The position numbers were made by a program, and so were the translations under genes. This document shows positions 160-61,646 of a stretch of DNA of 64,000 bases, piece by piece. The notes under the pieces were generated by a model. The model was given only the letters and a program-made list of their open reading frames with translations, was not told the DNA's origin and ran no database searches. Position 1 is the stretch's first letter. The number at the start of each line of letters is the position of its first letter. This DNA is from an uncultured beta proteobacterium (GTDB lineage: Bacteria; Pseudomonadota; Gammaproteobacteria; Burkholderiales; JACQAP01): positions 283,178 to 347,177 of the forward strand of contig CAWBMN010000007.1 of assembly GCA_963789945.1 (NCBI GenBank), read 5' to 3'.

Positions 160-792
160 TCAAACCCAACACAGAGGCACAGAGGACACGAAGAGGTCAC
201 GAAGAGAATCTGTTGAAGCAACTGCAAGCCGAACTATGTCGGTTTGTCTCTTCGTGCCACTTGGTGTTCTTGTATCTTCGTGTTCGTCTGGACTTCGTCT
301 TGCTTGGGTGTTGATCTTCAGATTCTTCAAGAAGGCGGCGCCGGCGAGTACGGCCTTGACGATGCCGTGATAGCCGGTGCATCGGCACAGGTTGCCGTCC
401 AGTTCGGCGCGGACCTGGGCCTCGCTCGGGTGCGGATGGCGTTTGACCAGATCGATGGCGCTCATCACCATCCCCGGTGTGCAGTAACCGCATTGCAGGC
501 CGTGATGGTCGCGGAACGCCGCCTGCATCGGGTGCATGGTGCCGTCGGGACGCGCCAAGCCCTCGATGGTGACGATAGTGGCGCCGTCGCCTTGCACGGC
601 AAGCATGTTGCAGCACTTCACTGCGTTGCCGTTCATGTGTATGGTACAGGCGCCGCATTGCGCGGTATCGCAGCCGATGTGGGTGCCGGTGAGGCGCAAC
701 GTGTCGCGGATGAAGTCGACCAGCAGAACCCGCGGTTCGATTTCGGCGGTAACGGGCATGCCGTTTACCGTCATTTTGATCTTTACGAGCAT
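160..792 (-). CDS. (2Fe-2S)-binding small subunit of an aerobic-type molybdenum hydroxylase (CoxS-like)
   Basis: The ORF-track protein has both 2Fe-2S cysteine clusters: CDTAQCGACT and CGYCTPG...CRCTGY. Family-like sequence ends near residue 155-160 (about position 318). The last ~50 codons run through repeat element E1. Confidence 0.9.
   Translation of the reverse strand: MLVKIKMTVNGMPVTAEIEPRVLLVDFIRDTLRLTGTHIGCDTAQCGACTIHMNGNAVKCCNMLAVQGDGATIVTIEGLARPDGTMHPMQAAFRDHHGLQCGYCTPGMVMSAIDLVKRHPHPSEAQVRAELDGNLCRCTGYHGIVKAVLAGAAFLKNLKINTQARRSPDEHEDTRTPSGTKRQTDIVRLAVASTDSLRDLFVSSVPLCWV
170..310. repeat. Foldback element E1 (CACAGAG/CACGAAG units)
   Basis: Left arm 170-206: CACAGAG-G-CACAGAG-GA-CACGAAG-AGGT-CACGAAG. 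Right arm 248-310: CTTCGTG, CTTGGTG, CTTCGTG, CTTCGTC. Spacer about 41 bp. It lies between the coxS-like and coxM-like genes. Confidence 0.8.
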
Positions 793-1249
793 GAGGCTTC
801 CTCACTGGTTGGCCTGCGAAGGACTCCCATGCTAGTCAAGCGGCGGCGCAGGATCAACTGGAATAGGGAAGCTCTGATCAAGTTCCACATGCGCGACCGA
901 GGCGATTCGGGTCGAGGACAAGACGGCGAGGACGCCGTGTAGCCGGCCTACATAAGGAGGAGCCGACGCTGACATCGGCACGAATCGCCCGGTCCCTCGA
1001 AAGAGTCGAAATGTCATTGGGTTGTGCCAGGTGCGGCGCCTGCGTTGTTACGCTCCTTGTTGGGGCTTCAGCCGCATCTGCGGACCGACGCCTAGCAGTC
1101 ATCCGCACCTGGCGCAACGCGCGTCGCGGAACTTGATCAGAGCTTCCCTGGGTTCCGGACAGTCCTAACAGGACCAGGCCGGGTGGCATAGAATCCGGCA
1201 AGCGGAGTCGTTCTTCGGACCGGCAACTCAGAGATAAAGGATCAGGCGA

Positions 1250-3553
1250 ATGGCAAAGTACGGTATCGGCCAGGCAATGGTGCGGCGCGAGGATCAGCGG
1301 TTGCTCTTCGGGGCAGGGCAGTTCGTCGATGATCTGTCGCTTCCCGGCGAGGTCTTTGTAGCGTTCGTGCGCTCACCGCACGCACACGCCCGCATCGTCT
1401 CCATCGACACTCAGGCCGCGCGGGCCATGCCCGGAGTCACAGCTGTGCTGACAGGTGCGGACCTCAAGGCCGACGGCATCGGTCCGCTGCCGGATGGACA
1501 GGGGCTGAAACGCGCCGACGGCAAACCTATGTGCGGCCCGCCGCACCACGCGCTTGCCGTAGACGCTGCGCGCTTTGTCGGCGAGCCCGTGGCCGCGGTA
1601 GTCGCGCAAACCCGTTCGCAGGCGGAGGACGCCGCCGAAAAGGTTATGGTCGAGTACGAGGAATGGCCGGCGGTCGTGACGATCGAGGCGGCCACCGCGC
1701 CGGGTGCGCCGCAACTGTGGCCGGACGCGCCGGGCAACATCGCCGCGCAGACCCAGTTCGGTAGCAAAGGCGAATGCGACGCCGCCTTCAAGAAGGCCAA
1801 ACACGTTACCAGGCTTGCGCTCTACAACCAGCGGCTGGTGCCGGTCAGCATGGAGCCGCGCGGTAGCATCGGGGAATTCGACGCCAAGACCGGCCGTTTC
1901 ACGCTGCGGACCAGTTGTCAGAACCCGGCCGGGCTGCAGCAGACGCTGGCGACGTCCTGCCTCAAGGTGCCGATGGACAAAGTGCGCGTTCGCGTCGGCG
2001 ACGTCGGCGGTGGTTTCGGCATGAAGACCCAGCTCTATCCCGAAGACGTGGTGTGCGCGTGGGCAGCGCGCAAGCTCGGCCGGCCGGTGCACTGGCGCGC
2101 CAGCCGCAGCGACGAATTTCTCGCCGGCAATCACGGGCGCGACCAGATCAATCGCGCGGAACTCGCTTTCGACGCGGACGGCAAGATCCTCGGCTTCCGG
2201 GTCGAGATCGTCGGCAACATCGGGGCGCATGCCAGCGGGCCGGGTGCGGTCATCGTTGTGGCAATCGGGCCGAAAGTGATCACCGGCGTCTATCACATCC
2301 CGGCACTCGACCTGCGCGGAACGGCGGTGCTGACCAATACCAACGTGGTCGGCGCGTATCGCGGCGCCGGACGGCCGGAAGCGATCTATCTCATCGAGCG
2401 GTTGATGGACCAGGCGGCCGCGGAAATGAAGATCGACCCGGCAGAATTGCGCCGGCGCAACTTCATCCAGCCCGGCGCCATGCCTTACACCACTCAGATG
2501 GGCGAAACGTTCGACAGCGGCAACTTTCCGCACATGCTCGACCGCATCCTCGGGCACGCCGACTGGAAGGGTTACGACAAACGGCGCGAAGAGTCTCGCA
2601 AGCGCGGCAAGCTGCGCGGCCGCGCACTGTCCACCTTTCTCGAATGGACCGGAGTCGTGCACGAGGAAACGGTGGACCTGCACGTGGAGGCCGACGGGCG
2701 GATCATGGTCTATACCGCGATGCAGGCGATGGGACAGGGCATCGAAACCAGCTATGTACAAATCATTTCCGAGACGCTCGACGTCGATCCGGACCGGATC
2801 GTCATCGTCCAGGGCGACAGCGACATCGCCCAGGGAATCGGCAGCATGGGCAGCCGTTCGGCCTACATCGGCGGCTCGGCGATGTTCACCGCTTCAAAAG
2901 ATACCGTCCAGAAAGGCAAGGAACTCGCCGCGGATGCGCTCGAGGCGGCCGCTTCGGATATGACGTATGACGACGGCCGCTTCAAGGTGGCCGGCACCGA
3001 TGTCGGCATCGGCCTGTTCGATCTGGCCGCGAAGCAGCCCGAGAAGCGCATCACCATCAAGACGTTGCAGAAGGTGGGCGGTCCGTCATGGCCGAACAGT
3101 TGCCACGTCTGCGAAGTCGAAGTCGATCCGGAAACAGGCGTGACCGAGATCGTGCGCTATACGACTGTGGATGACGTGGGGCGGGTGATCAATCCGCTTA
3201 TCGTCGCCGGTCAGGTGCACGGCGGAATTGCCCAGGCGGTGGGACAGGCGCTATTGGAGAATGCGCGTTACGACGCCGAGTCCGGTCAGCTCATCACTGG
3301 TTCACTTCTCGATTACTGCCTGCCGCGCGCGGACGATCTGCCCAGCTTCGCAACCTTCACCGACGAGTCCACGCCCTGCAAGATCAATCCGCTTGGCGCA
3401 AAGGGTGTCGGCGAGCTTGGCACGGTCGGCGGCACGCCCACCGTGATGAATGCGCTGATCGACGCGCTTCGCCCGTTGGGCGTCAAACACATCGAAATGC
3501 CGGCTACATCCGAAAAGGTATGGCAGGCGATCCGCCACGCCAAGGCAGCCTAG
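1250..3553 (+). CDS. Molybdopterin-binding large subunit, xanthine dehydrogenase family (form-II CoxL-like)
   Basis: 767 aa. The N-terminus MAKYGIGQAMVRREDQRLL is typical of the family. The active-site loop reads VVGAYRGAGRPEA (the AYRGAGR form-II motif, not the AYXCSFR motif of true CO dehydrogenase). Confidence 0.9.
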   Translation: MAKYGIGQAMVRREDQRLLFGAGQFVDDLSLPGEVFVAFVRSPHAHARIVSIDTQAARAMPGVTAVLTGADLKADGIGPLPDGQGLKRADGKPMCGPPHHALAVDAARFVGEPVAAVVAQTRSQAEDAAEKVMVEYEEWPAVVTIEAATAPGAPQLWPDAPGNIAAQTQFGSKGECDAAFKKAKHVTRLALYNQRLVPVSMEPRGSIGEFDAKTGRFTLRTSCQNPAGLQQTLATSCLKVPMDKVRVRVGDVGGGFGMKTQLYPEDVVCAWAARKLGRPVHWRASRSDEFLAGNHGRDQINRAELAFDADGKILGFRVEIVGNIGAHASGPGAVIVVAIGPKVITGVYHIPALDLRGTAVLTNTNVVGAYRGAGRPEAIYLIERLMDQAAAEMKIDPAELRRRNFIQPGAMPYTTQMGETFDSGNFPHMLDRILGHADWKGYDKRREESRKRGKLRGRALSTFLEWTGVVHEETVDLHVEADGRIMVYTAMQAMGQGIETSYVQIISETLDVDPDRIVIVQGDSDIAQGIGSMGSRSAYIGGSAMFTASKDTVQKGKELAADALEAAASDMTYDDGRFKVAGTDVGIGLFDLAAKQPEKRITIKTLQKVGGPSWPNSCHVCEVEVDPETGVTEIVRYTTVDDVGRVINPLIVAGQVHGGIAQAVGQALLENARYDAESGQLITGSLLDYCLPRADDLPSFATFTDESTPCKINPLGAKGVGELGTVGGTPTVMNALIDALRPLGVKHIEMPATSEKVWQAIRHAKAA

Positions 3554-3573: not shown

Positions 3574-3612
3574 GACGCAAAGGCGCAAAGACGCAAAGAA
3601 ATTCGAAGAAAC
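3574..3612. repeat. Foldback-family half element E2 (CGCAAAG units)
   Basis: GA-CGCAAAG-G-CGCAAAG-A-CGCAAAG-AAATTCGAAGAAACG lies just after the coxL-like stop. Only a degenerate partner (CTTACTTTCTCACTGCCTGCCTTGC, about 3688-3718) is visible. Confidence 0.6.
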
Positions 3613-13695: not shown

Positions 13696-14118
13696 ATGAA
13701 AGCACTGAAAGGTTCGAAGACCGAAAAAAGCTTGAAGGACGCGTTTGCCGGCGAATCACAGGCCAACCGCCGCTACCTGTATTTCGCAGCGAAAGCCGAC
13801 GTGGAAGGCCAGAACGACGTCGCTGCGGTGTTCCGCTCCACCGCCGAAGGCGAAACCGGTCATGCGCACGGCCATCTCGAGTACCTCGAAGCGGTGGGCG
13901 ACCCGGCAACCGGCCTGCCGATCGGCAAGTCGCGCGACAACCTGAAAGCGGCGATTGCCGGCGAGACCCACGAGTACACCGACATGTACCCCGGCATGGC
14001 CAAGGCCGCGCGCGACGAGGGCTTCGACGAAATCGCCGACTGGTTCGAGACCCTGGCCAAGGCGGAGCGCTCGCACGCCAACCGTTTCCAGAAGGCCCTG
14101 GACGCTCTGGCTGACTGA
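13696..14118 (+). CDS. Rubrerythrin-family diiron protein (no rubredoxin domain)
   Basis: 140 aa from ATG 13696. It has paired ExxH-type ligand segments: [13 protein letters not shown] and AERSHANRF. Confidence 0.9.
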
Positions 14119-14305
14119 AGTAGCAAGGCGAAAGGATGAAGGCGGAGGGTGGAAGGATGAAGAGCAAGGCGTAAGGATGAAGTAGGAAAGGTGAAGTCTG
14201 GAGTGGCGAAGCGCACCATTTGCTTCCGCCTTCGTCCTTCGTCCTTCATCCTTCATCCCTCATCCCTCATCCCTCATCCCTCATCCCTCATCCTTCATCC
14301 TTGTA
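14117..14305. repeat. Foldback element E3 (GGATGAAGG / CCTTCAT units)
   Basis: The left arm has AAGGATGAAG at 14132, 14153 and 14173 (20-21 nt period). The spacer is about 32 bp. The right arm has 11 tandem heptamers CCYTCRT at 14229-14305. The element starts at the rubrerythrin stop and ends 3 nt before ATG 14309. Confidence 0.9.
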
Positions 14306-18168: not shown

Positions 18169-18293
18169 GTTGCTGCAGTTACAGCAATACCAAATTGCAG
18201 TTCCGGCACGCTCTGCGAGCTTAACCTGACCGCTGTCTGCGATCAGGTTAGCCTGCACTGCAATCGCGTGCTGCTAAAGCAGCACAAGATTGT
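18169..18293. repeat. Copy A of a ~125-bp direct repeat (pseudo 3' end of proB plus downstream hairpins)
   Basis: The core 18195-18293 is about 90% identical to 18383-18481. It carries two hairpins: TAACCTGACCG...CGATCAGGTTA and GTGCTGCT-AA-AGCAGCAC. Confidence 0.85.
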
Positions 18294-18358: not shown

Positions 18359-18481
18359 CTTGCTGACTACAGCTAACCTAAGTTGTAGTTCCGGCACGCT
18401 CTGCGAGCTTAACCTGACCGCCATCCGCGATCAGGTTAGCCTTCTCTGCAATCGTGTGCTGCTAGAGCAGCACAAGATTGT
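18359..18481. repeat. Copy B of the ~125-bp direct repeat, overlapping the true proB stop
   Basis: It is offset 188 bp from copy A. It includes the last ~7 proB codons (HRDNLVLL and stop) within the hairpin GTGCTGC-TAGA-GCAGCAC. Confidence 0.85.
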
Positions 18482-19580
18482 CTCGGTGGATCAGTTCCGG
18501 TTCATCGACGTAGCCCAGCCGTGCTTCGATCTCGCTGCTGGGCGACTTGAGGATGCGTCGGGTTTCCGCCGAGCCGTAGTTCACCAGCCCGCGGGCGATT
18601 TCGTTGCCTTGCGGATCAAGGCAGCTCACCACTTCCCCCCGTTCGAATTCCCCGGCGAGCTCGTATACGCCGATCGGCAGCAGGCTCTTGCCGTCCACCT
18701 TCAGTGCCCGAACCGCACCGTCGTCGAGCGTGAGCTTGCCGCGCACCTGCAGATGATCGGCCAGCCATTGCTTGCGGGCGGCAAGGGTCATGGTATCGGC
18801 GATCAACTGGGTGCCGATCGGCTCGCCCCCCGCGAGTCGTATCAGAACGTCCGGCTCCCGCCCCGAAACGATGATGGTGGCGGCGCCACTGCGGGCGGCG
18901 CGCCGGGCCGCAAGCACCTTGGTAAGCATGCCGCCGCTGCCGAGATGGCTGCCCACTCCGCCCGCCATTTTTTCCAGGCCGGGATCGTCGGCCCGGCCTT
19001 CGCTGATCAATTCCGCGTCTTTGTGGATGCGGGGATCCCTGGTGTACAGGCCGGACTGGTCGGTGAGGATCACCAGGGCATCGGCCTCGATGAGATTGGT
19101 CACCAGCGCTGCCAGGGTGTCGTTGTCGCCGAAGCGGATCTCGTCGGTCGCTACGGTGTCGTTCTCGTTGATGATCGGGATGACGTTGAGCTCGAGCAGC
19201 GTGCGCAGCGTCGAGCGCGCGTTCAGATAGCGCTTGCGGTGAGACAGGTCCTCGTGAGTGAGCAGGACCTGTGCAGTATGCATGCCGTGCTTGCGGAAGC
19301 ACGACTCGTAGGCTTCGACCAGTCCCATCTGCCCTACTGCAGCGGCGGCCTGCTGTTCGTGCAACGCATGCGGGCGGCGCTTCCATCCAAGGCGCTTCAT
19401 GCCTTCGGCGACTGCGCCACTGGAGACCAGCACGATCTGCTTCCGGCGATGCCTGAGTTCCGCAATCTGCTCCGCCCAGCGCGCAAGCGCCGCGTGGTCC
19501 AGCCCCTGGCCTTCATTGGTGACCAGGCTGCTGCCGACCTTGATGACCAGGCGTTGTGCTTCGGCGACGACGGATTTCAT
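18462..19580 (-). CDS. proB: Glutamate 5-kinase
   Basis: 372 aa. It contains [12 protein letters not shown], an amino-acid kinase core and a C-terminal PUA-like region. It sits in the conserved position after obg. Confidence 0.95.
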
Positions 19581-19607
19581 GAGGTGACCGCGGCGGTCCT
19601 GGCCATG

Positions 19608-20669
19608 TTATTCGGTGTCTACTGCCGTTTCCGCCGGCTCGACGCGAGCATGGTGCTGGAGATGCTCCATGATGGCGTAGGTCAGCGCGCGGCATCCCTC
19701 TCCGGTGAGCGCCGAGATAATAAAGCTTTTTTCGGGGGCGGCTGCTGCGCGCGTGTATTCGGACAGAAAAGACCGGACTTTTTCCTCGCGATCTTCCGGC
19801 GCTATCAGGTCGGCCTTGTTGAGAACCAGCCAGCGCGGCTTGCGATAGAGCGAGTCGTCGTACTTGCGCAGTTCCTCGACAATTGCGCACGCGTCGTGCA
19901 CCGGATCGGCACCTTCGTCGAGCGGCGCCAGGTCCACCAGGTGCAGCAACAGGCGGGTGCGCTGCAGGTGGCGCAGGAACTGATGGCCGAGCCCGGCGCC
20001 TTCGGCCGCGCCTTCGATCAACCCGGGGATGTCGGCGATCACGAAACTGCGATTTTCGTCCACTCGCACCACGCCCAGGTTCGGGTGCAAGGTCGTGAAC
20101 GGATAGTCGGCGACTTTGGGACGCGCGGCCGAAACCGAGCGGATGAAGGTGGACTTGCCGGCGTTCGGCTGACCGAGCAATCCGACGTCGGCGAGCACCT
20201 TGAGTTCGAGCTTCAGATTTCGGCTTTCGCCCGGCCCTCCCGGGGTGCATTGGCGCGGCGCGCGGTTGGTGCTCGATTTGAAGTGGATGTTGCCGAGCCC
20301 TCCCTGGCCGCCCTTGACGAGCACGGCGGTCTGTCCGTCGGCGGCCAGATCGGCGATAACTTCACCGGTTGCGAGGTCGCTGATGACGGTGCCGACCGGC
20401 ACCTGCAGAGTGATGTCCTCGGCCGCCTTGCCGTAGCAGTCCGAACCCTGGCCTTTCCCGCCGTTGCGGGCACGATGGATGCGCGCGTAGCGGTATTCCA
20501 CCAGCGTATTGATGTTGCGGTCGGCAACCGCATGGATGCTGCCGCCACGGCCGCCGTCGCCGCCGTCCGGCCCGCCGCGCGGAATGAACTTCTCGCGCCT
20601 GAACGAGGCGATGCCATCCCCGCCCTTGCCGGCGTGGACTTCGATGGTGGCTTCGTCTACGAATTTCAT
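19608..20669 (-). CDS. obg: GTPase Obg/CgtA
   Basis: [45 protein letters not shown] is the glycine-rich Obg fold. G1 motif: GQPNAGKST. Confidence 0.96.
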
Positions 20670-20684
20670 ATGAAGAACAGTTTA

Positions 20685-20857
20685 GCCACAGAGGGCACAG
20701 AGAACACAGAGAAGAGGAAAAACAAAAAATACCAGTAGAAGGGAAAAATTCCTGGTCGCACAACCGAGACCACGTCAAACAGCCGGCGGAGATATCCGCA
20801 GTTATTGCGCGGTTTGCACGTTGGTTTTCCTCTGTGATCTCTGTGTCCTCTGTGGCC
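20685..20857. repeat. Foldback element E4 (CACAGAG units, 9-nt period)
   Basis: Left arm: GCCACAGAGGGCACAGAGAACACAGAGAAGAGGAAAAAC. Right arm: GTTTTCCTCTGTGATCTCTGTGTCCTCTGTGGC. Spacer about 111 bp. It lies between the rpmA terminator and the obg start. Confidence 0.92.
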
Positions 20858-20862
20858 AAGTA

Positions 20863-26628: not shown

Positions 26629-26706
26629 TAGTGGCTCGTGGCTAGTAAATTTGCCGGTCGTCCCCCGATTTCTTACCAACCACTAGCCACCAACCACCAG
26701 CCACTG
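26629..26706. repeat. Foldback element E5 (GTGGCTN / NAGCCAC heptamers)
   Basis: Left arm: GTGGCTC-GTGGCTA-GT. Spacer 26 bp. Right arm: CAACCAC-TAGCCAC-CAACCAC-CAGCCAC. It fills the ampD-HDAC gap and ends 5 nt before GTG 26712. Confidence 0.85.
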
Positions 26707-35331: not shown

Positions 35332-35422
35332 GCGGATGCAGAATAGGCAGGCGCCAAAAAAAATTCTACCCGTCTCGCACAATAACGGCCCCGGAAGGCC
35401 GTGGTCGAACGTAGACTTGTTA

Positions 35423-35528
35423 CCAGTCACCAGTCACCAGTCACCAGTCACCAGTCACCAGTCACCAGTCACCAGTCACCAGTCACCAGTCACCAGTCAC
35501 CAGTCACCAGTCACCAGTCACCAGTCAC
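35423..35528. repeat. Expanded heptamer array E6b, (CCAGTCA)15
   Basis: About 15 perfect tandem copies (106 bp) lie in the divergent gap between the hypothetical gene and the GST gene. The array ends at the GGAG RBS of the GST gene. The unit matches the NNGTCAC right-arm units of E11 and E14. Confidence 0.95.
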
Positions 35529-36183: not shown

Positions 36184-36215
36184 GTCAGCCGGTCTGACGA
36201 CTGGCTGCAAAAGCG

Positions 36216-36403
36216 TTGACGCAGAGGTCGCAGAGATACGCAGAGGGCACGGAGAAAAACAAGATAGGAATCTGGAGGGGAGGCAAATTGGGAATCTAGT
36301 GCTTGCACGTGAGTGACTGGGGAGCGGCACCGAACACTCACTCCCTTCGTTCCGCATTCCTCTGCGACCTTTCTTGCCTTTCTCTGCGCCCTCTGCGTCA
36401 ACG
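36216..36403. repeat. Foldback element E7 (CGCAGAG units)
   Basis: Left arm: CGTTGACGCAGAGG-TCGCAGAG-ATACGCAGAG-GGCACGGAGAAAAAC. Right arm: CCTCTGCG...CTCTGCG-CC-CTCTGCGTCAACG. The ~90-bp spacer has an internal hairpin GTGAGTG/CACTCAC. It fills the gap between the convergent GST and VOC genes. Confidence 0.92.
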
Positions 36404-38247: not shown

Positions 38248-38413
38248 TTCACCACGAAGGCACGAAGACACGAAGGAATTCGAATTCGAACCGTAATTGT
38301 TATGCGATACCGGTGACCGCCAGTGGTCCTGTTGCAGTCGGCGAACAAGCCAGGATATTTCGGTTTTCGCAAACCTTCAGATTTTCTTCGTGTCTTCGTG
38401 CCTTCGTGGTGAA
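38248..38413. repeat. Foldback element E8 (CACGAAG units, 8-nt period)
   Basis: The arms form a perfect 28-nt inverted repeat, TTCACCACGAAGGCACGAAGACACGAAG (left 38248-38275; reverse complement at about 38386-38413). Spacer about 87 bp. It lies between otnK and otnC. Confidence 0.95.
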
Positions 38414-38437: not shown

Positions 38438-39070
38438 ATGAACGAAGCGAAACTCAGGGAAGAGATCTGCATTCTTGCCAAGTCCATGTTCGATCGCGGA
38501 CTCACGCCCGGAAGTTCCGGCAACATCAGCGCGCGGGTGGAGGACGGCTGGCTGATGACGCCAACCAACTCCTGCCTTGGGCGGCTCGATCCGGCGACGC
38601 TTTCCAAAGTCGACGCGAAGGGCAATCCGGTTTCCGGCGGCAAGCCGACCAAGGAAGCCTTTCTGCATTTGTCCGTGTACGGGCAGCGGCCGTCCGCCGG
38701 CGCCATCGTACACTTGCATTCCACTCATTCTGTCGCCGTGTCCTGTCTCGCCGATACCGACCCTGACCAACCGATTCCGCCGATCACGGCGTACTACGTG
38801 ATGAAGATCGGCAATCTTGTACTGTTACCCTATTTCCCGCCCGGCGACATGACGCTCGCCAACGCGGTTCGCGAAGTCGCCGGCAAGCATCACGCGATCC
38901 TGCTCGCCAACCACGGCCCGGTGGTCGCCGGAAGGGACCTCGAGTCAGCGGTATACGCCACCGAAGAGCTGGAGGAAACGGCGAAGCTGTATTTGCTGTT
39001 GAGGGGCAATCGGCTCAAGATCCTCTCTCCCGAGCAAGTTGCGGAACTGCACCGGAAGTACCCGTCCTGA
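38438..39070 (+). CDS. otnC: Class II aldolase/adducin-family protein, probably 3-oxo-tetronate 4-phosphate decarboxylase
   Basis: ATG 38438. It contains GSSGNISARV and AIVHLHSTHSVA (metal-binding histidines). It is paired with the DUF1537 kinase. Confidence 0.7.
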   Translation: MNEAKLREEICILAKSMFDRGLTPGSSGNISARVEDGWLMTPTNSCLGRLDPATLSKVDAKGNPVSGGKPTKEAFLHLSVYGQRPSAGAIVHLHSTHSVAVSCLADTDPDQPIPPITAYYVMKIGNLVLLPYFPPGDMTLANAVREVAGKHHAILLANHGPVVAGRDLESAVYATEELEETAKLYLLLRGNRLKILSPEQVAELHRKYPS

Positions 39071-39257
39071 GAATCAGGATTCAGGAATCAGAATTCGGGA
39101 CTCAGCGAAATTCAGCCGGCCGACGGCTGGAGTTAAAAGCGTTGACGCGAAGCGCGCCAAGGGAAAAAAATTGAGGACGCGAAGGTGAAACGGGATCAAC
39201 AGCGTTCTATACGGGAATTCACGAACAAGAAATTTGGACTTGTCCACGAGCCACGAG
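39071..39257. repeat. Composite foldback-family element E9
   Basis: From left to right: (GAATCAGG/ATTCAGG)-type 7-8 nt array at 39071-39115; a GC hairpin; the head GCGTTGACGCGAAGCGCGCCAAGGGAAAAAAA (39139-39170); GACGCGAAGG; then CCACGAG-CCACGAG at 39244-39257. It is homologous to E6a. Confidence 0.8.
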
Positions 39258-39438
39258 TTCCGTCATGGGAAGTCGCTACGGCACGTTCAAGAATTTCTAC
39301 CCGCCCTACAGTTTGATCGGCGACTGGCGCCTGTAGGCGCAAATCCTCGTGGGAAGGTTCCGGTTGTGAATCCTGTCGCCGCGGCAGGGTCTGCGACTAG
39401 AATGAGATTGTCCTAGTCGAAGGTAGCGCGCGACCGTC

Positions 39439-41985: not shown

Positions 41986-43367
41986 AATTCCCGATTTCCG
42001 TTCTGCTTGCGGCGGCGTGTGCCGTCACCGCATCCGTCGCCTCCGCGCAGGAGACGCTGACCTTCAGCCGCTTCGGCAAGCTCACGCTCTACGGCGACAC
42101 GAAGGACCCTGCGGGCGTGGCGCTGCTCGCTTCCGGCGAGCGCGGCTGGAACCATATCGTGGAGGACATGGCGCGTGCGGTGGCCGAGGAGGGTGTGCTG
42201 GTGATCGGCGTCGATACCGGCCGCTACCTCAAGGCGCTCGAGGCTGCCGCGGACAAGTGCGCGTATCCCGCGGCCGACTTCGAGGCGCTGTCCCAGTTCG
42301 TGCAGAAGAAATTGGAACTCGTGCGCTACCAGACGCCGCAACTGATCGGCTACTCCACGGGCGCGGCGCTCACCTACGCCAGCGCGCAGCAGGCGCCGCC
42401 CGGCACCTTCAGCGGCGTGGTGAGCCTCGGCTTCTGCCCGCGTATTTCGCTGGTGAAGCCGCTGTGCCGCGGCAGCGGACCGCGCATCGCCGAGAGCGAC
42501 GACGGCAGCCAGCGTTTTCTCCCGCCGGAGAAATTCCCGGTGCCTTGGGTCGTGCTGCAGGGCGAAGAGGATGCGGTGTGTGATCCGCGGAAGGCGATCG
42601 AATTCGTGGGCGGCAGCGATGTCGGCGGCGTGGTGGTGCTGAGCAAAGTGGGTCACGACTTCGACTACAAGCAGAACTGGATACCGCAGTTGAAAGCGGC
42701 GGCGACAAAGTTGAAACCGAACCCCGCCGCCAGCCAGACCGCGGAGCAGGTCGGCGACCTGCCGCTGGTCGAGCTACCGGCGAAAGCCGCGGCGAACGAC
42801 ACGCTGGCGGTTATCATCTCCGGCAACGGCGGTTGGGCCGGCATCGACAAGTCGCTGGGCGAGCTGTTCGCGCAGCAGGGCATCGCGGTGGTGGGCCTGA
42901 ACTCGCTGCAGTATTTCTGGAAGAAGCGCGATCCCGATGTCGCGGCCCGGGATCTGGAGCGCATCGTGCGGCACTACCTGACGGCGTGGAAAAAGGAGAA
43001 GCTGCTTCTGGTGGGCTATTCCACCGGTGCGGATGTGCTGCCGTTCATGACGAGCCGCCTGCCGAAGGAGCTACTCTCGCGGGTAAAACTGGTCGCCTTA
43101 CTCGGACCCTCGTCCAATGCGAGTTTCGAGTTCCACGTCGCCGAATGGATAGGATTGAACCCGGCGAAGCAAGCACATCCGGTGAAGCCGCAGGTGGCGA
43201 AACTGCAGGGCACCAGGGTGCTGTGCATCTACGGCGAAGAAGAGAAGGACTCGCTTTGCACGAAGCTCGCGCCCGACATGGCGACGCGCAAGGTGCTCAA
43301 GGGTGCGCATCACTTCGGCGGCGACTACCGGGCGCTCGCCGCGGAAATCCTGAAATCGGCGGAATAG
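41982..43367 (+). CDS. acvB: AcvB/VirJ-family lysyl-phosphatidylglycerol hydrolase
   Basis: The ATG overlaps the mprF stop (ATGA). It has a signal peptide and two alpha/beta-hydrolase-like halves, each with a GYSTGA nucleophile elbow. Confidence 0.78.
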   Translation: MKFPISVLLAAACAVTASVASAQETLTFSRFGKLTLYGDTKDPAGVALLASGERGWNHIVEDMARAVAEEGVLVIGVDTGRYLKALEAAADKCAYPAADFEALSQFVQKKLELVRYQTPQLIGYSTGAALTYASAQQAPPGTFSGVVSLGFCPRISLVKPLCRGSGPRIAESDDGSQRFLPPEKFPVPWVVLQGEEDAVCDPRKAIEFVGGSDVGGVVVLSKVGHDFDYKQNWIPQLKAAATKLKPNPAASQTAEQVGDLPLVELPAKAAANDTLAVIISGNGGWAGIDKSLGELFAQQGIAVVGLNSLQYFWKKRDPDVAARDLERIVRHYLTAWKKEKLLLVGYSTGADVLPFMTSRLPKELLSRVKLVALLGPSSNASFEFHVAEWIGLNPAKQAHPVKPQVAKLQGTRVLCIYGEEEKDSLCTKLAPDMATRKVLKGAHHFGGDYRALAAEILKSAE

Positions 43368-43453
43368 CCGTTGGCACCGGGGTGATACCCGCCGCATAAT
43401 AGCCGGCAAACGGCAACTGTCCGCTTCGAATAATCTCTCGGAGGAAGGGCGCA

Positions 43454-43933
43454 ATGAAGCAATTGGCGGCGGTTCTGGGGCTTGTTCTCTGGCCGGCGGT
43501 TCTCCATGCCGGACCGACGCAAAAGATACTCGATCACTATGCGGAAGTGGCCAGGCAGGAAGACCCGGGTTTCGACGGGTTCTCGGGCGAACGCGGGGAA
43601 AAGCTCTATCACGAGAAAGGGATCATCCGTGGCCTCGGGTTCGTTACCTGTGCGTCCTGCCACCTTCCCGACCCTCGCGATATGATCATCGCGCACGAGA
43701 GCAAGATCCTGTGCCGCGCCTGTCACGTCATCAACGACGAAGAACACCCCAATCCCAAGAAGGCGAAAGTGCGGAAAATTCCGCCGCTGGCGCCATCGGC
43801 GAACGCGAAGCGCCTGACCGATCCGCAGACCGTGGAAGACTTCCTGCGGGTGAACTGCACGCTTGTGTTCAAGCGGGAATGCACGGCGAAAGAAAAGGGC
43901 GACGTGCTGGTCTGGCTGGGCGGGGTAAAGTGA
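43454..43933 (+). CDS. Periplasmic dihaem c-type cytochrome-like protein (DUF1924-like)
   Basis: 159 aa with a signal peptide and two CxxCH motifs, CASCH and CRACH. Confidence 0.68.
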   Translation: MKQLAAVLGLVLWPAVLHAGPTQKILDHYAEVARQEDPGFDGFSGERGEKLYHEKGIIRGLGFVTCASCHLPDPRDMIIAHESKILCRACHVINDEEHPNPKKAKVRKIPPLAPSANAKRLTDPQTVEDFLRVNCTLVFKRECTAKEKGDVLVWLGGVK

Positions 43934-49287: not shown

Positions 49288-49318
49288 CAAAAAAGGCGCA
49301 CGGCCGTGCGCCTTTTTT
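49288..49318. terminator. Bidirectional rho-independent terminator
   Basis: AAAAAA-GGCGCAC-GGCC-GTGCGCC-TTTTTT lies just downstream of the FAH-family gene, which ends at 49337 on the minus strand. Confidence 0.8.
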
Positions 49319-50195: not shown

Positions 50196-50395
50196 CTGCA
50201 AAAGTCAAAGTCGTTAGCCACAGAGGACACAGAGACCACAGAGAACTGCAAAGACGAAAACGATAATAGGAACAAAGAACAAAACAAAAACCCGCGGGAA
50301 ACGTCATGTATCCACCCAGTCCCGGTGTCTGTCTCGCGTCTTGCTTATTCGCTCTTCTCTGTGCCCTCTGTGCCCTCTGTGTCCTCTGTGGCCAA
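50196..50395. repeat. Foldback element E10 (CACAGAG units)
   Basis: The leader CTGCAAAAG is followed by the left arm TTAGCCACAGAGGACACAGAGACCACAGAGAAC (3 units). Spacer about 87 bp. The right arm is TTCTCTGTGCCCTCTGTGCCCTCTGTGTCCTCTGTGGCCAA (4 units). It lies between the SDR and FAH genes. Confidence 0.92.
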
Positions 50396-53771: not shown

Positions 53772-53892
53772 GTGACCGGTAACCGGTGACTGGTGAGGTA
53801 GGATGGAGCAGGACTCGATGAGGGGACAATAAGTGCAGACTTGCGAAGCACGTCTCATCACGCAGTCACTCGTCACTAGTCACCCGTCACCG
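53772..53892. repeat. Foldback element E11 (GTGACNN heptamers)
   Basis: Left arm: GTGACCG-GTAACCG-GTGACTG-GTGAGGT. Spacer 54 bp. The right arm has five NNGTCAC-type units: (CT)CATCAC-GCAGTCAC-TCGTCAC-TAGTCAC-CCGTCAC. It ends 6 nt before ATG 53898. Confidence 0.9.
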
Positions 53893-53897: not shown

Positions 53898-54805
53898 ATG
53901 GGAGCGCTCTCTCGATTCTTCGATAGCCGCAATGTCCTCGGGTTGTTGTTCATGCTGCCCGCGGCGGCACTGCTGCTGGTGTTCCTGACCTATCCGCTGG
54001 GTCTGGGTGTTTGGCTGGGATTCACCGATACCAAGGTCGGGCGCGCCGGAGGCTGGATCGGCATCGAGAACTACGAATTCCTGGTGACCGACAGCGTGTT
54101 CACGCTGTCGGTGTTCAATACCTTCGTGTACACGGTTGTTGCGAGCGTCATCAAGTTCATTCTGGGACTGTGGCTGGCCTTGCTCCTCAACAAGCACATT
54201 CCTTTCAAGTCGTTCGTCCGAGCCATCGTGCTGCTGCCGTTCATCGTGCCCACGGTGCTTTCGGCGATCGCATTCTGGTGGATCTACGATGCCCAGTTCT
54301 CGATCGTGAGTTGGGTGCTGGTGAGACTGGGGATCATTGACCAGTACATCAATTTCCTCGGCGAGCCGAACCTTGCGCGCATGTCCACGATCATCGCCAA
54401 CATCTGGCGTGGCGTGCCCTTCGTGGCGATCTGCCTGCTGGCCGGGCTGCAGACCATACCGCCGTCGATGTACGAAGCGGCGAGCATCGACGGGGCGAGC
54501 CCCTGGCAGCAGTTCTGGCACGTCACGCTGCCCATGCTCTCGCCGATCATCGCGGTGGTCATGACTTTCTCGGTGCTGTTCACGTTCACCGATTTTCAGT
54601 TGATCTGGGTGCTGACCCGCGGCGGACCGATCAACGCCACCCATCTGATGGCCACGCTTTCTTTTCAACGTGCGATCCCCGGCGGGGCACTGGGTGAAGG
54701 TGCGGCGATCGCTACCGCGATGATTCCGTTCCTGCTGGCGGCGATTCTGTTCCGTACTTCGGGTTGCAGCGGAGAAGGTGGCAGCAGGGGGGGAGCGACA
54801 AGTGA
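53898..54805 (+). pseudogene. ABC transporter permease 1 (MalF/UgpA-like) with a -1 frameshift near its 3' end
   Basis: It is a six-TM permease with an EAA-like loop (YEAASIDGASPWQQFWHVTLP). After ...PFLLAAILF the family-like tail YFGLQRRRWQQGGSDK and its stop (TGA 54803-54805) lie in the -1 frame. The annotated ORF instead reads on to 54983 through element E12. Confidence 0.75.
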
Positions 54806-54907
54806 CGAGGTTCGAGGTACGAGGGCCGAGGTTCGAGTGGAAACCAAGCGCTATAGGAAGCATTTGAACTTACTCGGCCCTCGTCACCTCGGTCCTCGGC
54901 CCTCGCT
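54804..54907. repeat. Foldback element E12 (NNCGAGG heptamers)
   Basis: Left arm: GACGAGG-TTCGAGG-TACGAGG-GCCGAGG-TTCGAGT. Spacer 34 bp. Right arm: CTCGGCC-CTCGTCA-CCTCGGT-CCTCGGC-CCTCGCT. It lies between the two permease genes. Confidence 0.9.
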
Positions 54908-54919
54908 CAGCGAGCGCAC

Positions 54920-55790
54920 ATGGCGAGCGCTGAGCCCCGCGAAGGCATGCAGTACCTGGAGTCGCTGCCGCGACGCTGGGTGACGGTTTACATTCCGTTG
55001 CTCGTTTTCCTGTTCGTGCTGCTGTTTCCGTTCTACTGGATGGTGATCACGTCGTTCAAGCCGAACGCGGAACTGCTTTCCAGCAGCGGCAATCCATTCT
55101 GGGTCGTCGATCCGACGCTGGAGCACTTCAGGAAACTCTTCTTCGATACGTCCTATCCGAAGTGGATGTGGAACACGATGCTGGTGTCGGTGGTGTCGAC
55201 TTTCGTTTCGCTGGTTGCCAGCGTGTTCGCCGCCTACGCGATCGAGCGGCTGCGCTTCAGGGGATCGCGGCAGACCGGGCTGGCGATTTTTCTCGCCTAC
55301 CTGATTCCGCCCTCCATCCTGTTCATACCGCTGGCGACCATGGTGTTCCAGCTCGGGATTTTCGACACTCGCTGGGCGTTGATCCTGACGTATCCGACTT
55401 TCCTGATTCCGTTCTGCACCTGGTTGCTGATGGGCTATTTCCGCTCGATCCCGTTCGAGCTTGAGGAGTGCGCACTGATCGACGGCGCTACGCGCTGGCA
55501 GATTCTGATCAGGATCGTTCTGCCGCTGGCGGTGCCGGGGCTGATCTCGGCCGGCATCTTTGCGTTCACGTTGTCCTGGAACGAAGTTCATCTACGCTCT
55601 GACGTTCATTTCGGCTTCCGAGAACAAGACGGTCCCGGTGGGGGTGATCACCGAACTGGTCGAGGGCGACGTGTATCACTGGGGCTCATTGATGGCGGGC
55701 GCTCTGGTCGGCTCGCTGCCGGTGGCGGTGATGTATTCTTTCTTCGTCGAGTATTACGTCGCCGGCATGACCGGCGCGGTTAAGGAATGA
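54920..55790 (+). pseudogene. ABC transporter permease 2 (MalG/UgpE-like) with a +1 frameshift
   Basis: ...GIFAFTLSWNE continues in the next frame as FIYALTFISASENKTVPVGV...YYVAGMTGAVKE (ORF 55560-55790). The break is near 55584. Confidence 0.78.
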
Positions 55791-55794
55791 AGCA

Positions 55795-55963
55795 CTTGAC
55801 CACAGAGGACACAGAGGGCACCGAGGAAAGAAAAGTCAGAAATTGCTTGAGTTAGCACTGGAGCGATATCGGGGATTCCTGCGTCGGCAACCATGAGAGG
55901 CTCGGTCCTCTTCCGATTGCTGCTTTTGTTCTTCTGTGTGATCTCTGTGTTCTCTGTGGTCAA
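55795..55963. repeat. Foldback element E13 (CACAGAG units)
   Basis: Left arm: TTGACCACAGAGGACACAGAGGGCACCGAGGAAAGAAAAG. Spacer about 87 bp. Right arm: CTTTTGTTCTTCTGTGTGATCTCTGTGTTCTCTGTGGTCAA. Confidence 0.92.
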
Positions 55964-55987: not shown

Positions 55988-57720
55988 ATGGCTGCAAGGA
56001 AAAAACTGCGTAGTTACGACTGGTTCGGCGGAGCCGGGGATCGACAGTATGGTGCATCGCTCGTGGATGAAGAACCAGGGCCTGCCGCGACACTTGTTCG
56101 AGGGCCGTCCGGTGATCGGCATCTGCAATACCTGGTCGGAACTCACGCCCTGCAATGCGCACTTCCGCATGATCGCCGAGCGCGTCAAGCGCGGCGTGCT
56201 ACGAGGCCGGAGGTTTCCCGCTCGAGTTCCCGGTGATGTCGCTGGGCGAGCCGGTGATGCGTCCGACCGCAATGCTGTTCCGCAATCTCGGCGTCGATGG
56301 ACGTCGAGGAATCCATCCGCGCCAATCCGCTCGACGGCGTGATGCTGCTGACCGGCTGCGACAAGACCACGCCGGCACTGATGATGGGCGCGGCATCCTG
56401 CGACGTGCCGACGCATCGTTGTTTCCGGCGGCCCCATGCTCAACGGTCGCTGGCGTGACGAGACTGTCGGTTCCGGCACGCACGTCTGGAAGTTCAAGGA
56501 AATGCTCAAGACGCGGCGAGATGACCGACGAAGACCTGCTCGATGCCGAGCAGGCCATGTCGCGTTCCGCCGGCCATTGCATGACCATGGGTACCGCTTC
56601 GACGATGGCGTCGATGGCCGAGGCACTGGGCATGGCGCTGCCCACCAACGCCGCGATTCCCGCGGTGGATTCGCGCCGCTACGTGCTCGCGCACATGGCG
56701 GGACAGCGGATCGTGCAGATGGTCAAGGAAGATCTGCGCATGTCGAAGATCCTGACCAAACAGGCTTTCGAGAATGCCATCCGCGTTAACGGCGCCATCG
56801 GCGGCTCAACCAACGCGGTGGTGCACCTGCTGGCGTTGGCCGGCCGTATCGGCGTCAAGCTCACGCTGGATGACTGGGATCGCCTCGGCCGCGACCTGCC
56901 CTGCCTGGTGAACCTGATGCCTTCCGGCGAGTATCTCATGGAAGACTTTTATTACGCCGGCGGCCTGCCGGTGGTGATCAGGGAACTGGGCAGGGCCGGC
57001 CTGCTGCACAGGAAGGCGCCCACCGTTAACGGCCAGAGCATCTGGGACAACGTCAGGGACGCCAGGAACTGGAACCCGAAAGTGATCTTCCCGGTGGACA
57101 AGCCGTTCAAGAAGCAGGGTGGCATAGCGGTGCTGCGCGGCAATCTCGTGCCCAAAGGCGCAGTGATCAAGCCCTCGGCCGCAACGCCAAAGCTGATGAA
57201 GCATCGCGGCCGCGCGGTGGTGTTCGAGAACATCGAGGACTACAAGAAGCGAATCGACGACCCTAAGCTGAAAGTGGACGAAACCTGCGTGCTGGTGCTG
57301 AAAAACTGCGGGCCGAAGGGCTATCCGGGTTTCCCTGAGGTCGGCAACTTTGCGCTGCCGGCCAAGGTCCTGAAGAAAGGGATCACGGACATGGTGCGCA
57401 TATCCGATGCGCGCATGAGCGGCACCGCCTACGGCACCGTGGTGCTGCATAGCGCTCCGGAAGCCGCGGCAGGCGGAACGCTGGCGCTGGTGCAGGACGG
57501 CGACATGATCGAGATCGACGTGCCGAAGAGAAAATTGCATCTCGACGTGTCGGAAGCCGAGCTGGCCAGGCGGCGCAAGAAGTGGAAGGCGCCTAAAGCC
57601 ATGGCGGAACGGGGTTACGTAAAGATCTACATCGACCACGTCAATCAGGCGGATGAGGGCGTGGACCTCGACTTTCTGGTGGGCGGCAGCGGCACGCCTC
57701 TGCTGCGGGAGTCCCACTAG
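55988..57720 (+). pseudogene. IlvD/Edd-family sugar-acid dehydratase with five +1 frameshifts in its first ~530 nt
   Basis: Joined across frames, the protein reads MAARKKLRSYDWFGG...MVHRSWMKNQGLP...GRPVIGICNTWSELTPCNAH...EAGGFPLEFPVMSLGE...MDVEESIRANPLDGVMLLTGCDKTTPALMMGA...VSGGPMLNGRW...GEMTDEDLL..., then runs intact to 57720. Breaks are near 56048, 56201, 56292, 56414 and 56514. Confidence 0.8.
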
Positions 57721-59372: not shown

Positions 59373-59530
59373 GTGACTTGTGACAAGTGACAAGTGACAA
59401 GTGACAGGACTCGCCACAATCGCTGACTAGAGAAAGCAGTCCGCAGGAAGCCCGAATCACGAAAACGACAAAGTCAGGATGTCGAGGATTATTGCCCTTG
59501 CCTCGTCACCTGTCACTAGTCACTCGTCAC
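59373..59530. repeat. Foldback element E14 (GTGACAA heptamers)
   Basis: Left arm: GTGACTT-GTGACAA-GTGACAA-GTGACAA-GTGACAG. Spacer 95 bp. Right arm: TCGTCAC-CTGTCAC-TAGTCAC-TCGTCAC. Confidence 0.92.
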
Positions 59531-60480: not shown

Positions 60481-60548
60481 AAGGATGAAGGATGAAGGAG
60501 GAAGGATGAAGAGAAGTATCATTGCTCATCCGCTTTTCTTCGTTCGTG
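60481..60548. repeat. Foldback-family element E15 (AAGGATG heptamers, short partner)
   Basis: AAGGATG-AAGGATG-AAGGAGG-AAGGATG-AAGAGAA is followed after ~8 nt by a degenerate partner, GCTCATCCGCTTTTCTTCGTTCG. Confidence 0.75.
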
Positions 60549-61460: not shown

Positions 61461-61474
61461 TGCAGTTCCTTTTC

Positions 61475-61646
61475 AGGGACGCGGGGCGAGGAATGAGGGG
61501 TGAGGGGAACGATGTTCTGGATCGGCTTACGGCAACAGTGAAACTTCGTACAATTCCCATGCAATTGATGAAACGTCGGTGTGGGTCTTGGGATAGATTC
61601 TTCGGTTCTTACCCGTCCCTCGTGCCTCGCACCTCGTGCCTCATGT
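61475..61646. repeat. Foldback element E16 (YGAGG heptamers)
   Basis: Left arm: GGGACGCGGGGCGAGGAATGAGGGGTGAGGGGAAC. Spacer about 102 bp. Right arm: CCCGTCC-CTCGTGC-CTCGCAC-CTCGTGC-CTCATGT. The right arm overlaps the pip stop codon (61641-61643). Confidence 0.85.

Follow-up and report, generated by a model that had tools for sequence, protein, structure and literature searches.

What are the tandem, hairpin-forming repeats that crowd the intergenic DNA of an uncultured Burkholderiales bacterium, and what puts them there? The window analysed here, a stretch of 64,000 nucleotides (nt) of contig CAWBMN010000007.1, carries arrays of 7–9-nt units at 17 intergenic sites, and most arrays face a reverse-complement copy across a spacer, giving a foldback. 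An earlier note on this DNA had treated the sites as one family and compared them with eukaryotic Foldback transposons. Our analysis suggests instead that they mix two related kinds, foldbacks of 8–9-nt units (class A) and a heptamer class (class B), and that class A consists of gene-less, non-autonomous relatives of a mini-element encoding a small nuclease-like protein, GxxExxY; we put the probability of this reading at about 0.5. There is a substantial chance that the foldbacks mark a new element family.

Repeats and hairpins of the window

Tandem arrays were called with Tandem Repeats Finder and inverted pairs with an inverted-repeat finder, and the sequences were then read directly. Units of period 7–9 are present at 17 of the 17 sites originally listed, and most arrays pair with a reverse-complement array 50–130 nt away. 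Complete foldbacks, with array, spacer and reverse-complement array, occupy about 12 of the 17 sites (170–310, 14117–14305, 20682–20859, 26629–26706, 36214–36403, 38248–38413, 50214–50395, 53772–53892, 54804–54907, 55796–55963, 59373–59530 and 61475–61646). The remaining five (3574, 34594, 35423, 39071 and 60481) are half, composite, lone or weak-partner arrays. The proposed architecture, including the existence of half and composite copies, therefore stands; the idea of a single family does not, as the two classes behave differently.

Under a strict automatic criterion (arrays of period 7–10; a partner being a reverse complement matching at least 13/14 within 300 nt), the window holds 31 arrays against 5.8 in 20 second-order Markov simulations. 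An inverted partner was found for 11 arms, compared with 0.05 (maximum 1) in the simulations, which places inverted pairing well above the chance level that the earlier note had named as the alternative. Full elements fold into long hairpins, with RNA minimum free energy (MFE) z-scores of −5 to −12 relative to dinucleotide shuffles, and two composites do not fold in this way (e34594, z = +2.4; e39071, z = −0.5). The elements sum to 2,392 nt, or 3.7% of the window, matching the first estimate of 2.4 kb, and comprise at least ten different units within 64 kb.

A covariance-model search of the window matched the elements to no Rfam family at gathering thresholds or at E ≤ 1: a tRNA alone reached the gathering score, and at E ≤ 1 there were chance hairpin matches to the plant microRNA precursors MIR2118 and MIR398. 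The defining features of repetitive extragenic palindromic (REP) sequences and bacterial interspersed mosaic elements (BIMEs) are likewise absent. No transposase turned up among the window open reading frames (ORFs) scanned, in a search that was not exhaustive, and no RAYT gene was noticed among them. An assembly or adapter artefact can be ruled out, as independent assemblies carry the same elements at matching loci; arms in complete records of cultured Bacteroides, Anabaena/Nostoc, Gemmatirosa and Pseudoalteromonas also speak against it.

A conserved arm module and the genes it encloses

Class A comprises the sites at 170, 3574, 20682, 34594 (left), 36214, 38248, 39071 (middle), 50214 and 55796. 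Each arm, of about 30 nt, consists of a TTNRC terminus followed by about three units (CACAGAGNN, CACGAAGN, GCAGAGGNN or GCRAAGGN) and is mirrored on the opposite side, so that whole elements begin and end TTNRC...GYNAA. Inverted arms of this build, with outer termini that complement each other, are seen at 20682, 36214, 38248, 50214 and 55796, and the gene-containing elements described below are constructed alike, with units of 8–11 nt. Two window loci (20682 and 50214) have identical idiosyncratic termini, TTAGCC...GGCCAA, mismatch included. Window copies of one family have their arms in common and not their spacers.

The same module extends far beyond this lineage. With one genome per species, the matches listed for CACAGAGNN ×3 include Planctomycetota, Acidobacteriota, Chloroflexota, Cyanobacteria, Bacteroidota, Gemmatimonadota, Firmicutes and several proteobacterial classes, often with an inverse array nearby. 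Exactly three units are present in 136 of the 151 arrays listed and in 148 of 153 from viral contigs (about 90–97%), with a flank consensus of aaaaTTARC and partners that lie downstream in 69 cases and upstream in 9. By comparison, two control 9-mers of equal composition in viral contigs form arrays of 3–11 copies with no flank motif and 0–1 partners. The 2-nt linkers of the two arms agree at 6.18 of 11 positions versus 4.89 ± 0.23 for shuffled pairs, yet they are often mismatched, and the 7-nt core is conserved, so that sequence is being kept and not pairing alone. At least 120 metagenome contigs, with GC contents of 39–65%, share a 28-base arm around essentially unrelated spacers of 6 nt to more than 300 nt; the spacers of 54 metagenome copies are likewise essentially unrelated, and one contig (L168), in which whole elements are repeated with a shared spacer, is an exception. 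The CACAGAGNN arm is also present, unannotated, in the complete records of Bacteroides finegoldii, Anabaena/Nostoc, Gemmatirosa and Pseudoalteromonas, and CACAGAG arms occur in Nostoc and Anabaena plasmids. The arms are thus a specific, conserved sequence module found in many phyla around unrelated spacers.

Two variations on this arrangement were seen. In L093 (678–1151), L423 (8480–9110) and L411 (2517–2700), whole foldbacks or single arms are repeated head-to-tail several times; the elements can form higher-order tandem arrays. Nine of 78 CACAGAG pairs are reversed, with the pyrimidine arm first (L020, 6325–6408; L022, 88–171; L090) and outer termini facing each other across a short gap; the appearance is that of one element's right arm directly adjoining the left arm of its neighbour.

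What, if anything, moves such a module? Arm pairs more than 500 nt apart were sought in genome, viral and metagenome sets, and no transposase lay between them in any of the three. When all ORFs near arms were clustered, a protein of about 120 residues emerged that adjoins arms in five loci from different collections. It is the TIGR04256 'GxxExxY protein', homologues of which carry PF13366 (PDDEXK_3) in precomputed annotation. Seven loci found through their arms have such a gene (L441, L411, L465, L488, L423, L464 and L115). The simplest, L441, has an arm of three units, the GxxExxY gene and an inverse arm of three units between two housekeeping genes; L411, L465 and L488 have an arm, the GxxExxY gene, an arm, a cargo gene and an inverse arm.

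The converse search gave the same picture. When GxxExxY genes were found by protein alone, in plasmid records and viral contigs, 8–9 of the 10 genes lay between such arms. On a B. finegoldii plasmid, radA is followed by TTCAC(CACAGAGGA CGCAGAGGA CACGGAGGA), the GxxExxY gene, (CTCTGTGAC CTCTGTGTC CTCTGTG)GTGAA and the next gene. A Bernardetia plasmid has degenerate CACAGAG arms around its copy, and in a Sphingomonas plasmid record the gene sits between fabD and fabG, preceded by TTCAC GCGAAGGC GCGAGGAC GCGAAG. In Gemmatirosa, complete GGACTGAAGAA foldbacks stand on both sides of the gene, the Treponema gene has a simple inverted repeat, and no flanking arms were seen at the Persicobacter gene. 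Among viral contigs, L530 has arms of the TTCAC-CACAAAG/CACGAAG type, L531 has tandem 9–10-nt ATCAGCG-type units on both sides, L532 has CGGAATAAA ×3 by the gene and L533 has CGCGAAAAG-type arms. A further locus from the arm scan (L501), in which the gene was found by tblastn, has ACAGGATTA ×3–4 arms. Scored automatically, complementarity of at least 13/14 across the gene was present for 6 of the 10 independently found GxxExxY genes versus 0 of 61 control genes. Each GxxExxY gene lineage has its own arm unit.

The protein looks like a nuclease. Its catalytic-type residues (E, D and ExK) are invariant, its predicted structure is confident (pLDDT 90.9) with an alpha-beta-beta-beta-alpha-beta core, and its closest, though weak, structural neighbours (Cas4 SSO0001, lambda exonuclease and DrdV) are all PD-(D/E)XK nucleases. 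The family is very large, with at least 7,861 homologues at E ≤ 1e-20 among the 8,000 candidates listed, and a survey of PD-(D/E)XK proteins lists it as of 'unknown' function with frequent horizontal transfer (PMC3424549). In the literature searched, we found no paper linking CACAGAG repeats or GxxExxY to repeats.

GxxExxY genes are not the only small genes enclosed by arms. Three DUF5677 proteins (with a weak match to PDC-S52), an FRG protein (PADLOC PDC-S15) and a SIR2-like protein are also encoded there, between CACAGAG arms in metagenome contigs (L411 3237–3947, L423 7672–8421, L465 322–1086, L486 1104–1925 and L488 9059–10141). The DUF5677, FRG and SIR2-like genes are candidate single-gene defence systems that would be cargo next to the GxxExxY gene. 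No relatives of DUF5677 were found in the viral contigs.

These associations suggest a mechanism for class A. The full-length form would carry the GxxExxY gene (TIGR04256/PF13366) between its arms, sometimes with an extra cargo gene. The nuclease may recognise the repeated units, or the hairpin or cruciform that they form, a role that we infer from the nuclease fold and the lineage-specific units. Its cut might allow arm-bounded DNA to be copied into new intergenic sites, and copies that lack the gene would in that case be mobilised in trans, by analogy with MITEs (miniature inverted-repeat transposable elements) and insertion sequences (IS), or REPINs and RAYTs. In this organism, it is arm similarity alone that suggests the link between class A and GxxExxY. 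The Foldback analogy of the earlier note gains support, as versions that hold a PD-(D/E)XK gene between arms of this sort exist elsewhere.

Class B (14117, 26629, 34649, 35423, 53772, 54804, 59373, 60481 and 61475) is best described as simple-sequence arrays that slippage lengthens and shortens on the spot, both arms keeping pace, an inverted pair of simple-sequence repeats of the Xanthomonas type. Both classes adjoin stop codons in convergent or co-directional intergenic DNA and change in unit number.

Several observations weigh against this reading. Neither the window nor about 150 kb of close relatives' loci contains a GxxExxY gene by tblastn. Class A copies in the window share their arms only, which is unusual for MITEs, and the Gemmatirosa gene lies between two complete foldbacks and not inside one. 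Structural matches of the protein are weak (E 7.5e-3, TM 0.5). No target-site duplication was seen at inspected ends or at empty and filled sites, where few junctions are informative, and no clean empty/filled junction was recovered among relatives. GxxExxY could itself be cargo and not the mobilising enzyme, as DUF5677, FRG and SIR2-like genes also lie between arms. Finally, none of the GxxExxY genes examined has arms of heptamer units around it, and class B may be a phenomenon of its own, due to mutation alone.

A broader proposal, which we offer only tentatively, is that GxxExxY proteins are the nucleases of tiny selfish elements spread across the bacterial domain, which spawn gene-less foldbacks, and that the window shows their Burkholderiales branch. 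The autonomous form would then be an arm-gene-arm unit of about 450–500 bp with about three tandem, lineage-specific units of 8–11 nt per arm. In some genomes, gene-less foldbacks would amount to a few per cent of the sequence, and single defence-type genes (DUF5677, SIR2-like, FRG/PDC-S15) would be carried as cargo. If this is true, a very large orphan family gains a role, and a PD-(D/E)XK nuclease with tandem-unit hairpin arms joins IS/MITE and RAYT/REPIN among the known element pairs. The heptamer and nonamer intergenic repeats of cyanobacteria, Xanthomonas and many metagenome-assembled genomes (MAGs), on record for decades, would also gain an explanation.

Turnover, polarity and competing explanations

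How stable are the elements at a given site? Conserved gene order in relatives (loci from uncultured Burkholderiales MAGs, chosen as best protein matches) allows orthologous intergenic regions to be compared, as the earlier note had recommended. Even where neighbouring proteins are 95–100% identical, the same sites may be empty or hold a different family, so that sites are empty, filled or replaced among relatives. The otnK-aldolase site illustrates this range: the two genes overlap in L001 and are separated by 100 nt without repeats in L003, a CACGAAGN element with identical arms is present in the window (e38248), L004, L126 and L127, and L005 and L006 carry a CGCAGAGGA element. The spacer of e38248 is inverted in L004 and L126 relative to the window. 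That of L004 is the reverse complement of the window's, which indicates that the spacer flips between the inverted arms, rules out random spacer turnover or independent insertion at this site and qualifies the original description of spacers as unique, as they are not always unrelated. Spacers of both classes flip by recombination between arms. L127 has also lost one unit here, its right arm having two units versus three in the window.

Other sites change as readily. Between the glutathione S-transferase (GST) and glyoxalase genes, the window and L004 have a GCAGAGGNN element, L127 has an AGTGCTN heptamer foldback and L001 has a GGGTGAG one. The adh_short/FAA site shows five states among genomes in which the FAA protein is 96–100% identical to that of the window: a GGGNNGA heptamer foldback, the same with a GCAAAGG element, the GCAAAGG element alone, a CACGAAGG element and, in the window, a CACAGAG element. 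The heptamer foldback at this site has two units per arm in the distant L001, four in L397 and 5/4 in L398, with a conserved spacer. Copies of (ACCAGTC)n number none in L001, about three in a degenerate proto-repeat in L005, about 4.5 in L004 and 15 in the window. Turnover is thus very fast and combines local growth with replacement by other families. The elements are fast-evolving strain markers that differ between genomes with 99% identical proteins. They probably also explain why short-read contigs of this lineage so often end beside genes, many relatives' contigs being 1–2 kb. Many contigs that hold window-neighbour or GxxExxY genes are only 0.6–2 kb, about one gene with its flanks, as if assemblies break at the repeats. 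No metagenome match to the e50214 spacer was found when paralogous copies were sought.

A second general property is the polarity of the arms. In about 1 Mb of loci from many phyla, which contain 297 arrays of period 7–10, an inverted partner lies downstream of 70 arrays and upstream of 83, versus 2 and 4 in a reversed-sequence control. Of 65 left (5′) arms, 62 are purine-rich, and of 78 right (3′) arms, 72 are pyrimidine-rich; leaving out the CACAGAG family, which was used to find the loci, the counts are 24 of 25 and 26 of 28. The purine-first order holds on both strands because the structure is an inverted repeat, and the rule is common to both classes. Telomerase-like addition of repeats at both ends of a double-strand break was considered because of this polarity and is disfavoured, as the two arms are correlated at their variable positions and certain pairs mirror each other perfectly. 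DnaA boxes, parS half-sites, sigma-70 −35 boxes, Chi/KOPS arrays and RNA sites of the CsrA, TRAP and HutP type, judged by their consensus sequences, each fitted only some of the units or failed at a conserved position. Copying of units from a flanking gene accounts for a single coincidence (ACGAAG at the start of the aldolase gene) and is not general.

Could the elements arise entirely in place? Slippage would duplicate a 7–9-nt unit in one arm, and hairpin-templated copying, by template switching or stem mismatch correction, would mirror it in the other, with no movement and no dedicated enzyme. We consider this doubtful as a general account, even though much of the turnover described above fits it: the heptamer foldback at adh_short/FAA that differs in unit number around a kept spacer (L001, L397 and L398), the growth of (ACCAGTC)n from a degenerate proto-repeat and the differing right arm of e38248 in L127. 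Units also decay towards the centre of elements, layers of different units are nested, and the correlated variable positions of the arms (6.18 versus 4.89 ± 0.23 of 11) are what mirrored copying would produce. The flanks are rich in A 5′ of the elements and in T 3′ of them, a pattern shared with bidirectional terminators that could explain the polarity, and slippage has already been proposed for an excess of heptamers elsewhere (PMC4692102). Local growth does not, however, predict that CACAGAGNN arms should have exactly three units in 90–97% of cases together with a conserved TTARC flank, neither of which the control 9-mers show. Nor does it predict an identical 28-nt arm in contigs of 39–65% GC, or two window loci with the same idiosyncratic termini (TTAGCC...GGCCAA), mismatch included. 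Three different 8–9-nt families at exactly one position, with neighbours 96–100% identical, and the specific association with one protein family, GxxExxY, also argue against it.

A role in RNA is less probable still as the reason that the elements exist. Hairpins at the 3′ ends of genes could terminate transcription bidirectionally, or shield the upstream mRNA from 3′ exonucleases as REP/BIME do, and be selected by the host. Position is the chief attraction of this idea. On an approximate gene map of the window, foldbacks fill about 5 of 9 convergent, about 10 of 40 co-directional and 0 of 9 divergent intergenic regions, where the sole array is the lone (ACCAGTC)15. The elements lie 0–30 nt from stop or start codons, a wider range than the 0–12 nt first given, and start 0–30 nt after stop codons; as the earlier note had stated, none lies within a conserved domain. 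MFE z-scores reach −12, T-rich tracts follow several right arms, and the same placement rules apply to the Xanthomonas repeats, which are transcribed. Against this stand presence and absence between genomes with 95–100% identical neighbours, positions inside operons whose genes overlap in relatives (such as otnK-aldolase in L001) and spacers that can be as short as 6 nt or longer than 1 kb and may contain genes. Conserved 7-nt cores with often mismatched 2-nt linkers further indicate that sequence is maintained beyond pairing. Canonical terminators, moreover, lie beside or inside elements, as at 49289–49318 and in an inner hairpin of the B. finegoldii element. The former is a perfect 15+15-nt palindrome (AAAAAAGGCGCACGG/CCGTGCGCCTTTTTT) conserved in relatives L396–L400; it is a textbook bidirectional intrinsic terminator, and the lineage therefore also uses ordinary terminators. 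Transcribed elements must form very stable hairpins at mRNA 3′ ends, and effects such as termination, 3′ protection or RNase III processing are to be expected from that stability. We regard these as a consequence: rapid presence and absence, positions inside operons and the canonical terminators alongside make an RNA function unlikely as the reason for existence.

Very improbable, finally, is a cassette system with attC-like folded arms at which a site-specific recombinase inserts and excises small accessory or defence genes: the consensus termini ATTTAAC...GTTAAAT do fit the integron attC cores (R″/R′, RYYYAAC...GTTRRRY, with invariant AAC/GTT), and single small genes, including candidate defence genes (FRG = PDC-S15, SIR2-like and DUF5677 with its weak PDC-S52 match), do lie between arms that are sometimes several in series, but here the AAC/GTT triplet is variable (AGC and CAC often stand in its place, 38% have G at position −2 and 43% have a base other than A at position −3), no integrase was seen at any locus, window elements lie between syntenic housekeeping genes and are not arrayed, and attC sites are not built from tandem units.

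Precedents, individual sites and neighbouring features

The foldbacks are not without precedent. Inverted arrays of the heptamer GGGAATC occur 70–75 times per genome in Xanthomonas, as convergent arrays with the G-rich arm first; they lie near ORF ends, are under-represented between divergent ORFs, vary in unit number between species and have no known function (Rehm et al. 2015, PMC4692102). The class B sites at 14117, 26629, 53772, 54804, 59373 and 61475 share the intergenic tandem heptamers, the G-rich-first pairing, the position near ORF ends and the rarity between divergent ORFs. They differ in that a single unit type, GGGNATC, is described for Xanthomonas, preferably in fours and interpreted as forming G-quadruplexes, whereas the window has at least ten units (GAAGGAT, GTGACNN, CGAGGNN, TAGTGGC and others), most without G-quadruplex potential. 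The additional 8–9-nt class with fixed copy number and conserved termini also sets the window apart, and no protein link is noted in the Xanthomonas work.

REPINs are likewise inverted, extragenic doublets present in hundreds of copies and several families per genome and tied to a small gene, RAYT, with these repeats on both sides (Bertels and Rainey 2011, PMC3116915). Our elements resemble them as two inverted copies of a short conserved sequence around a less conserved spacer that form an extragenic hairpin. However, window arms are direct tandem units with TTNRC termini and no GTAG, and REP sequences are imperfect palindromes of 20–40 nt with a 5′ GTAG, the associated protein here is of the PD-(D/E)XK and not the HUH/Y1 transposase type, and REPIN copies share their spacer within a genome. 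With MITEs (Correia/NEMIS, ERIC, RUP and Nezha) the elements share small size, lack of coding capacity, terminal inverted repeats, intergenic position and presence/absence polymorphism; unlike in MITEs, shared internal sequence, target-site duplications and terminal repeats matching a known IS transposase were not found here. Eukaryotic Foldback transposons are alike in having long inverted termini of tandem subrepeats around a variable, sometimes gene-carrying middle, but differ in domain of life, size (kilobases) and enzymes, so that the comparison is an analogy only. Unlike intrinsic terminators, which are short GC-rich stem-loops with a U-tract directly behind, the elements have stems of 25–40 bp and loops of 30–130 nt, and T-rich tracts, if any, follow 4–10 nt after the stem.

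The short tandemly repeated repetitive (STRR) heptamers of cyanobacteria (Mazel 1990) are reportedly tandem heptamers, usually described as plain arrays, and the statement that they never have an inverted partner was too strong. Small dispersed repeats (SDR; Elhai 2008) are said to be modules of 21–27 nt that turn up at fresh sites and displace each other. Both can be set beside our elements by description only, as tandem heptamers in intergenic DNA and as very small modules. Three features appear to be undescribed in the literature searched: an arm module of three units, with conserved termini, that is found across phyla; the universal polarity that puts the purine arm first; and the association with GxxExxY genes and defence-type cargo.

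The individual class A sites range from intact to fragmentary. The foldback at 170–310 (z = −3.1; units CACAGAGG and CACGAAGAG, degenerate right arm) lies within the 3′ end of the minus-strand ORF 160–792. At 3574–3612, between convergent genes, stands a half element consisting of the left arm only (TTCGAC-GCAAAGGC-GCAAAGAC-GCAAAG), whose unit family is also found in relatives L004, L399 and L082. Three foldbacks have CACAGAGNN units: 20682–20859 (three units, the TTAGCC...GGCCAA termini, spacer of 118 nt, z = −11.8), inside which ORF 18360–20738 ends; 50196–50395 (the same termini; arms at 50214–50246 with three units and 50353–50395 with four; z = −6.6/−10.4); and 55796–55963 (three units, termini TTGACC...GGTCAA, z = −7.7). 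The foldback at 36214–36403, between convergent genes, has GCAGAGGNN ×3–4 and termini CGTTGAC...GTCAACG (z = −6.4), and that at 38248–38413, inside the otnK-aldolase gene pair, has CACGAAGN ×3 and termini TTCACC...GGTGAA, with arms 94% complementary (z = −9.7).

Two sites are composites. At 34594–34726 (z = +2.4), the left arm of a GCRAAGG element (34594–34617) adjoins an unrelated (ACGAGCC)11 array (34649–34727); the orthologous element is complete in L004, GCGTTGAC(GCAAAGGNN)n...GTCAACGC, and the site is empty (17–19 nt) in L001 and L005. The degenerate composite at 39071–39257 (z = −0.5) holds GAATCAG/GATTCAG heptamers at 39071–39105, a half arm GCGTTGAC-GCGAAGCGC-GCCAAGGG at about 39138–39165 and a CCACGAGCCACGAG remnant at 39244–39257. 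It also forms the left boundary of a difference in gene content: MprF and the following gene or genes (39070–43693) are absent at the matching junction of L001, where about 10 nt join the flanking genes.

Class B is equally varied. The foldback at 14117–14305 (z = −6.5/−7.4) has about ten degenerate GAAGGAT-like units on the left and CCTTCAT/CCCTCAT ×10.6 on the right. That at 26629–26706 (TAGTGGC/TCGTGGC ... GCCACTA-like; z = −5.2) fills a 94-nt co-directional intergenic region where relatives L001 and L005 carry a different foldback with CGTCACG units. A lone (ACCAGTC)15 array at 35422–35528, a variable-number tandem repeat with 100% matches, lies in a divergent region 10 nt upstream of the GST start codon. 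Further foldbacks are found at 53772–53892 (GTGACCG-like ... GTCACNN; z = −2.3/−3.7), at 54804–54907 (CGAGGTT-like ... CCTCGNN; z = −6.6), which is read through by the 3′ end of the permease ORF 53898–54983, and at 59373–59530 (GTGACAA ×4–5 ... GTCACNN ×3–4; z = −4.7). An (AAGGATG)4.4 array with a weak, short inverted partner follows a T-tract at 60481–60548 (z = −2.1), and an imperfect foldback of heptamer type spans 61475–61646 (GGGACGC/GAGGGGT ... CCTCGTG; z = −2.1 on the plus and −0.3 on the minus strand).

As had been anticipated, the elements lie behind odd ORF ends, and three ORFs have element-encoded C-terminal tails: 160–792 (minus strand; CoxS-like, with the Fer2_2 domain ending at residue 148 of 210), 18360–20738 (plus strand) and 53898–54983 (plus strand; a permease whose domain ends at residue 283 of 361). 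The elements thereby explain spurious ORFs and odd tails with peptides of the TEDTE and LCVLCG type.

Several neighbouring features deserve mention. Downstream of the element at 55796–55963, the plus-strand ORF 56233–57720, a dihydroxy-acid/arabinonate dehydratase, matches its family only from profile position ~172 of 576, and the Pfam ILVD_EDD_N match starts at position 134; the leading ~170 residues are lacking or have been replaced, suggesting a gene truncated at its 5′ end or a pseudogene. Two copies of a 32-nt palindromic CAATCGCGTGCTGCTAAAGCAGCACAAGATTG (18261–18292 and 18449–18480), 156 nt apart, lie upstream of or overlap the start of a 792-residue ORF without a family match. A perfect 22-nt inverted repeat, AGGGAAGCTCTGATCAAGTTCC (865–886 and 1128–1149), with 241 nt between its arms and two nested shorter inverted repeats, sits in the divergent region upstream of molybdenum hydroxylase genes. 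Lastly, a lysine- and alanine-rich coding repeat at 32602–32922, with AAGAAGGCC-type units of period 9–33 typical of histone-H1-like proteins, explains several Tandem Repeats Finder rows that are unrelated to the foldbacks.

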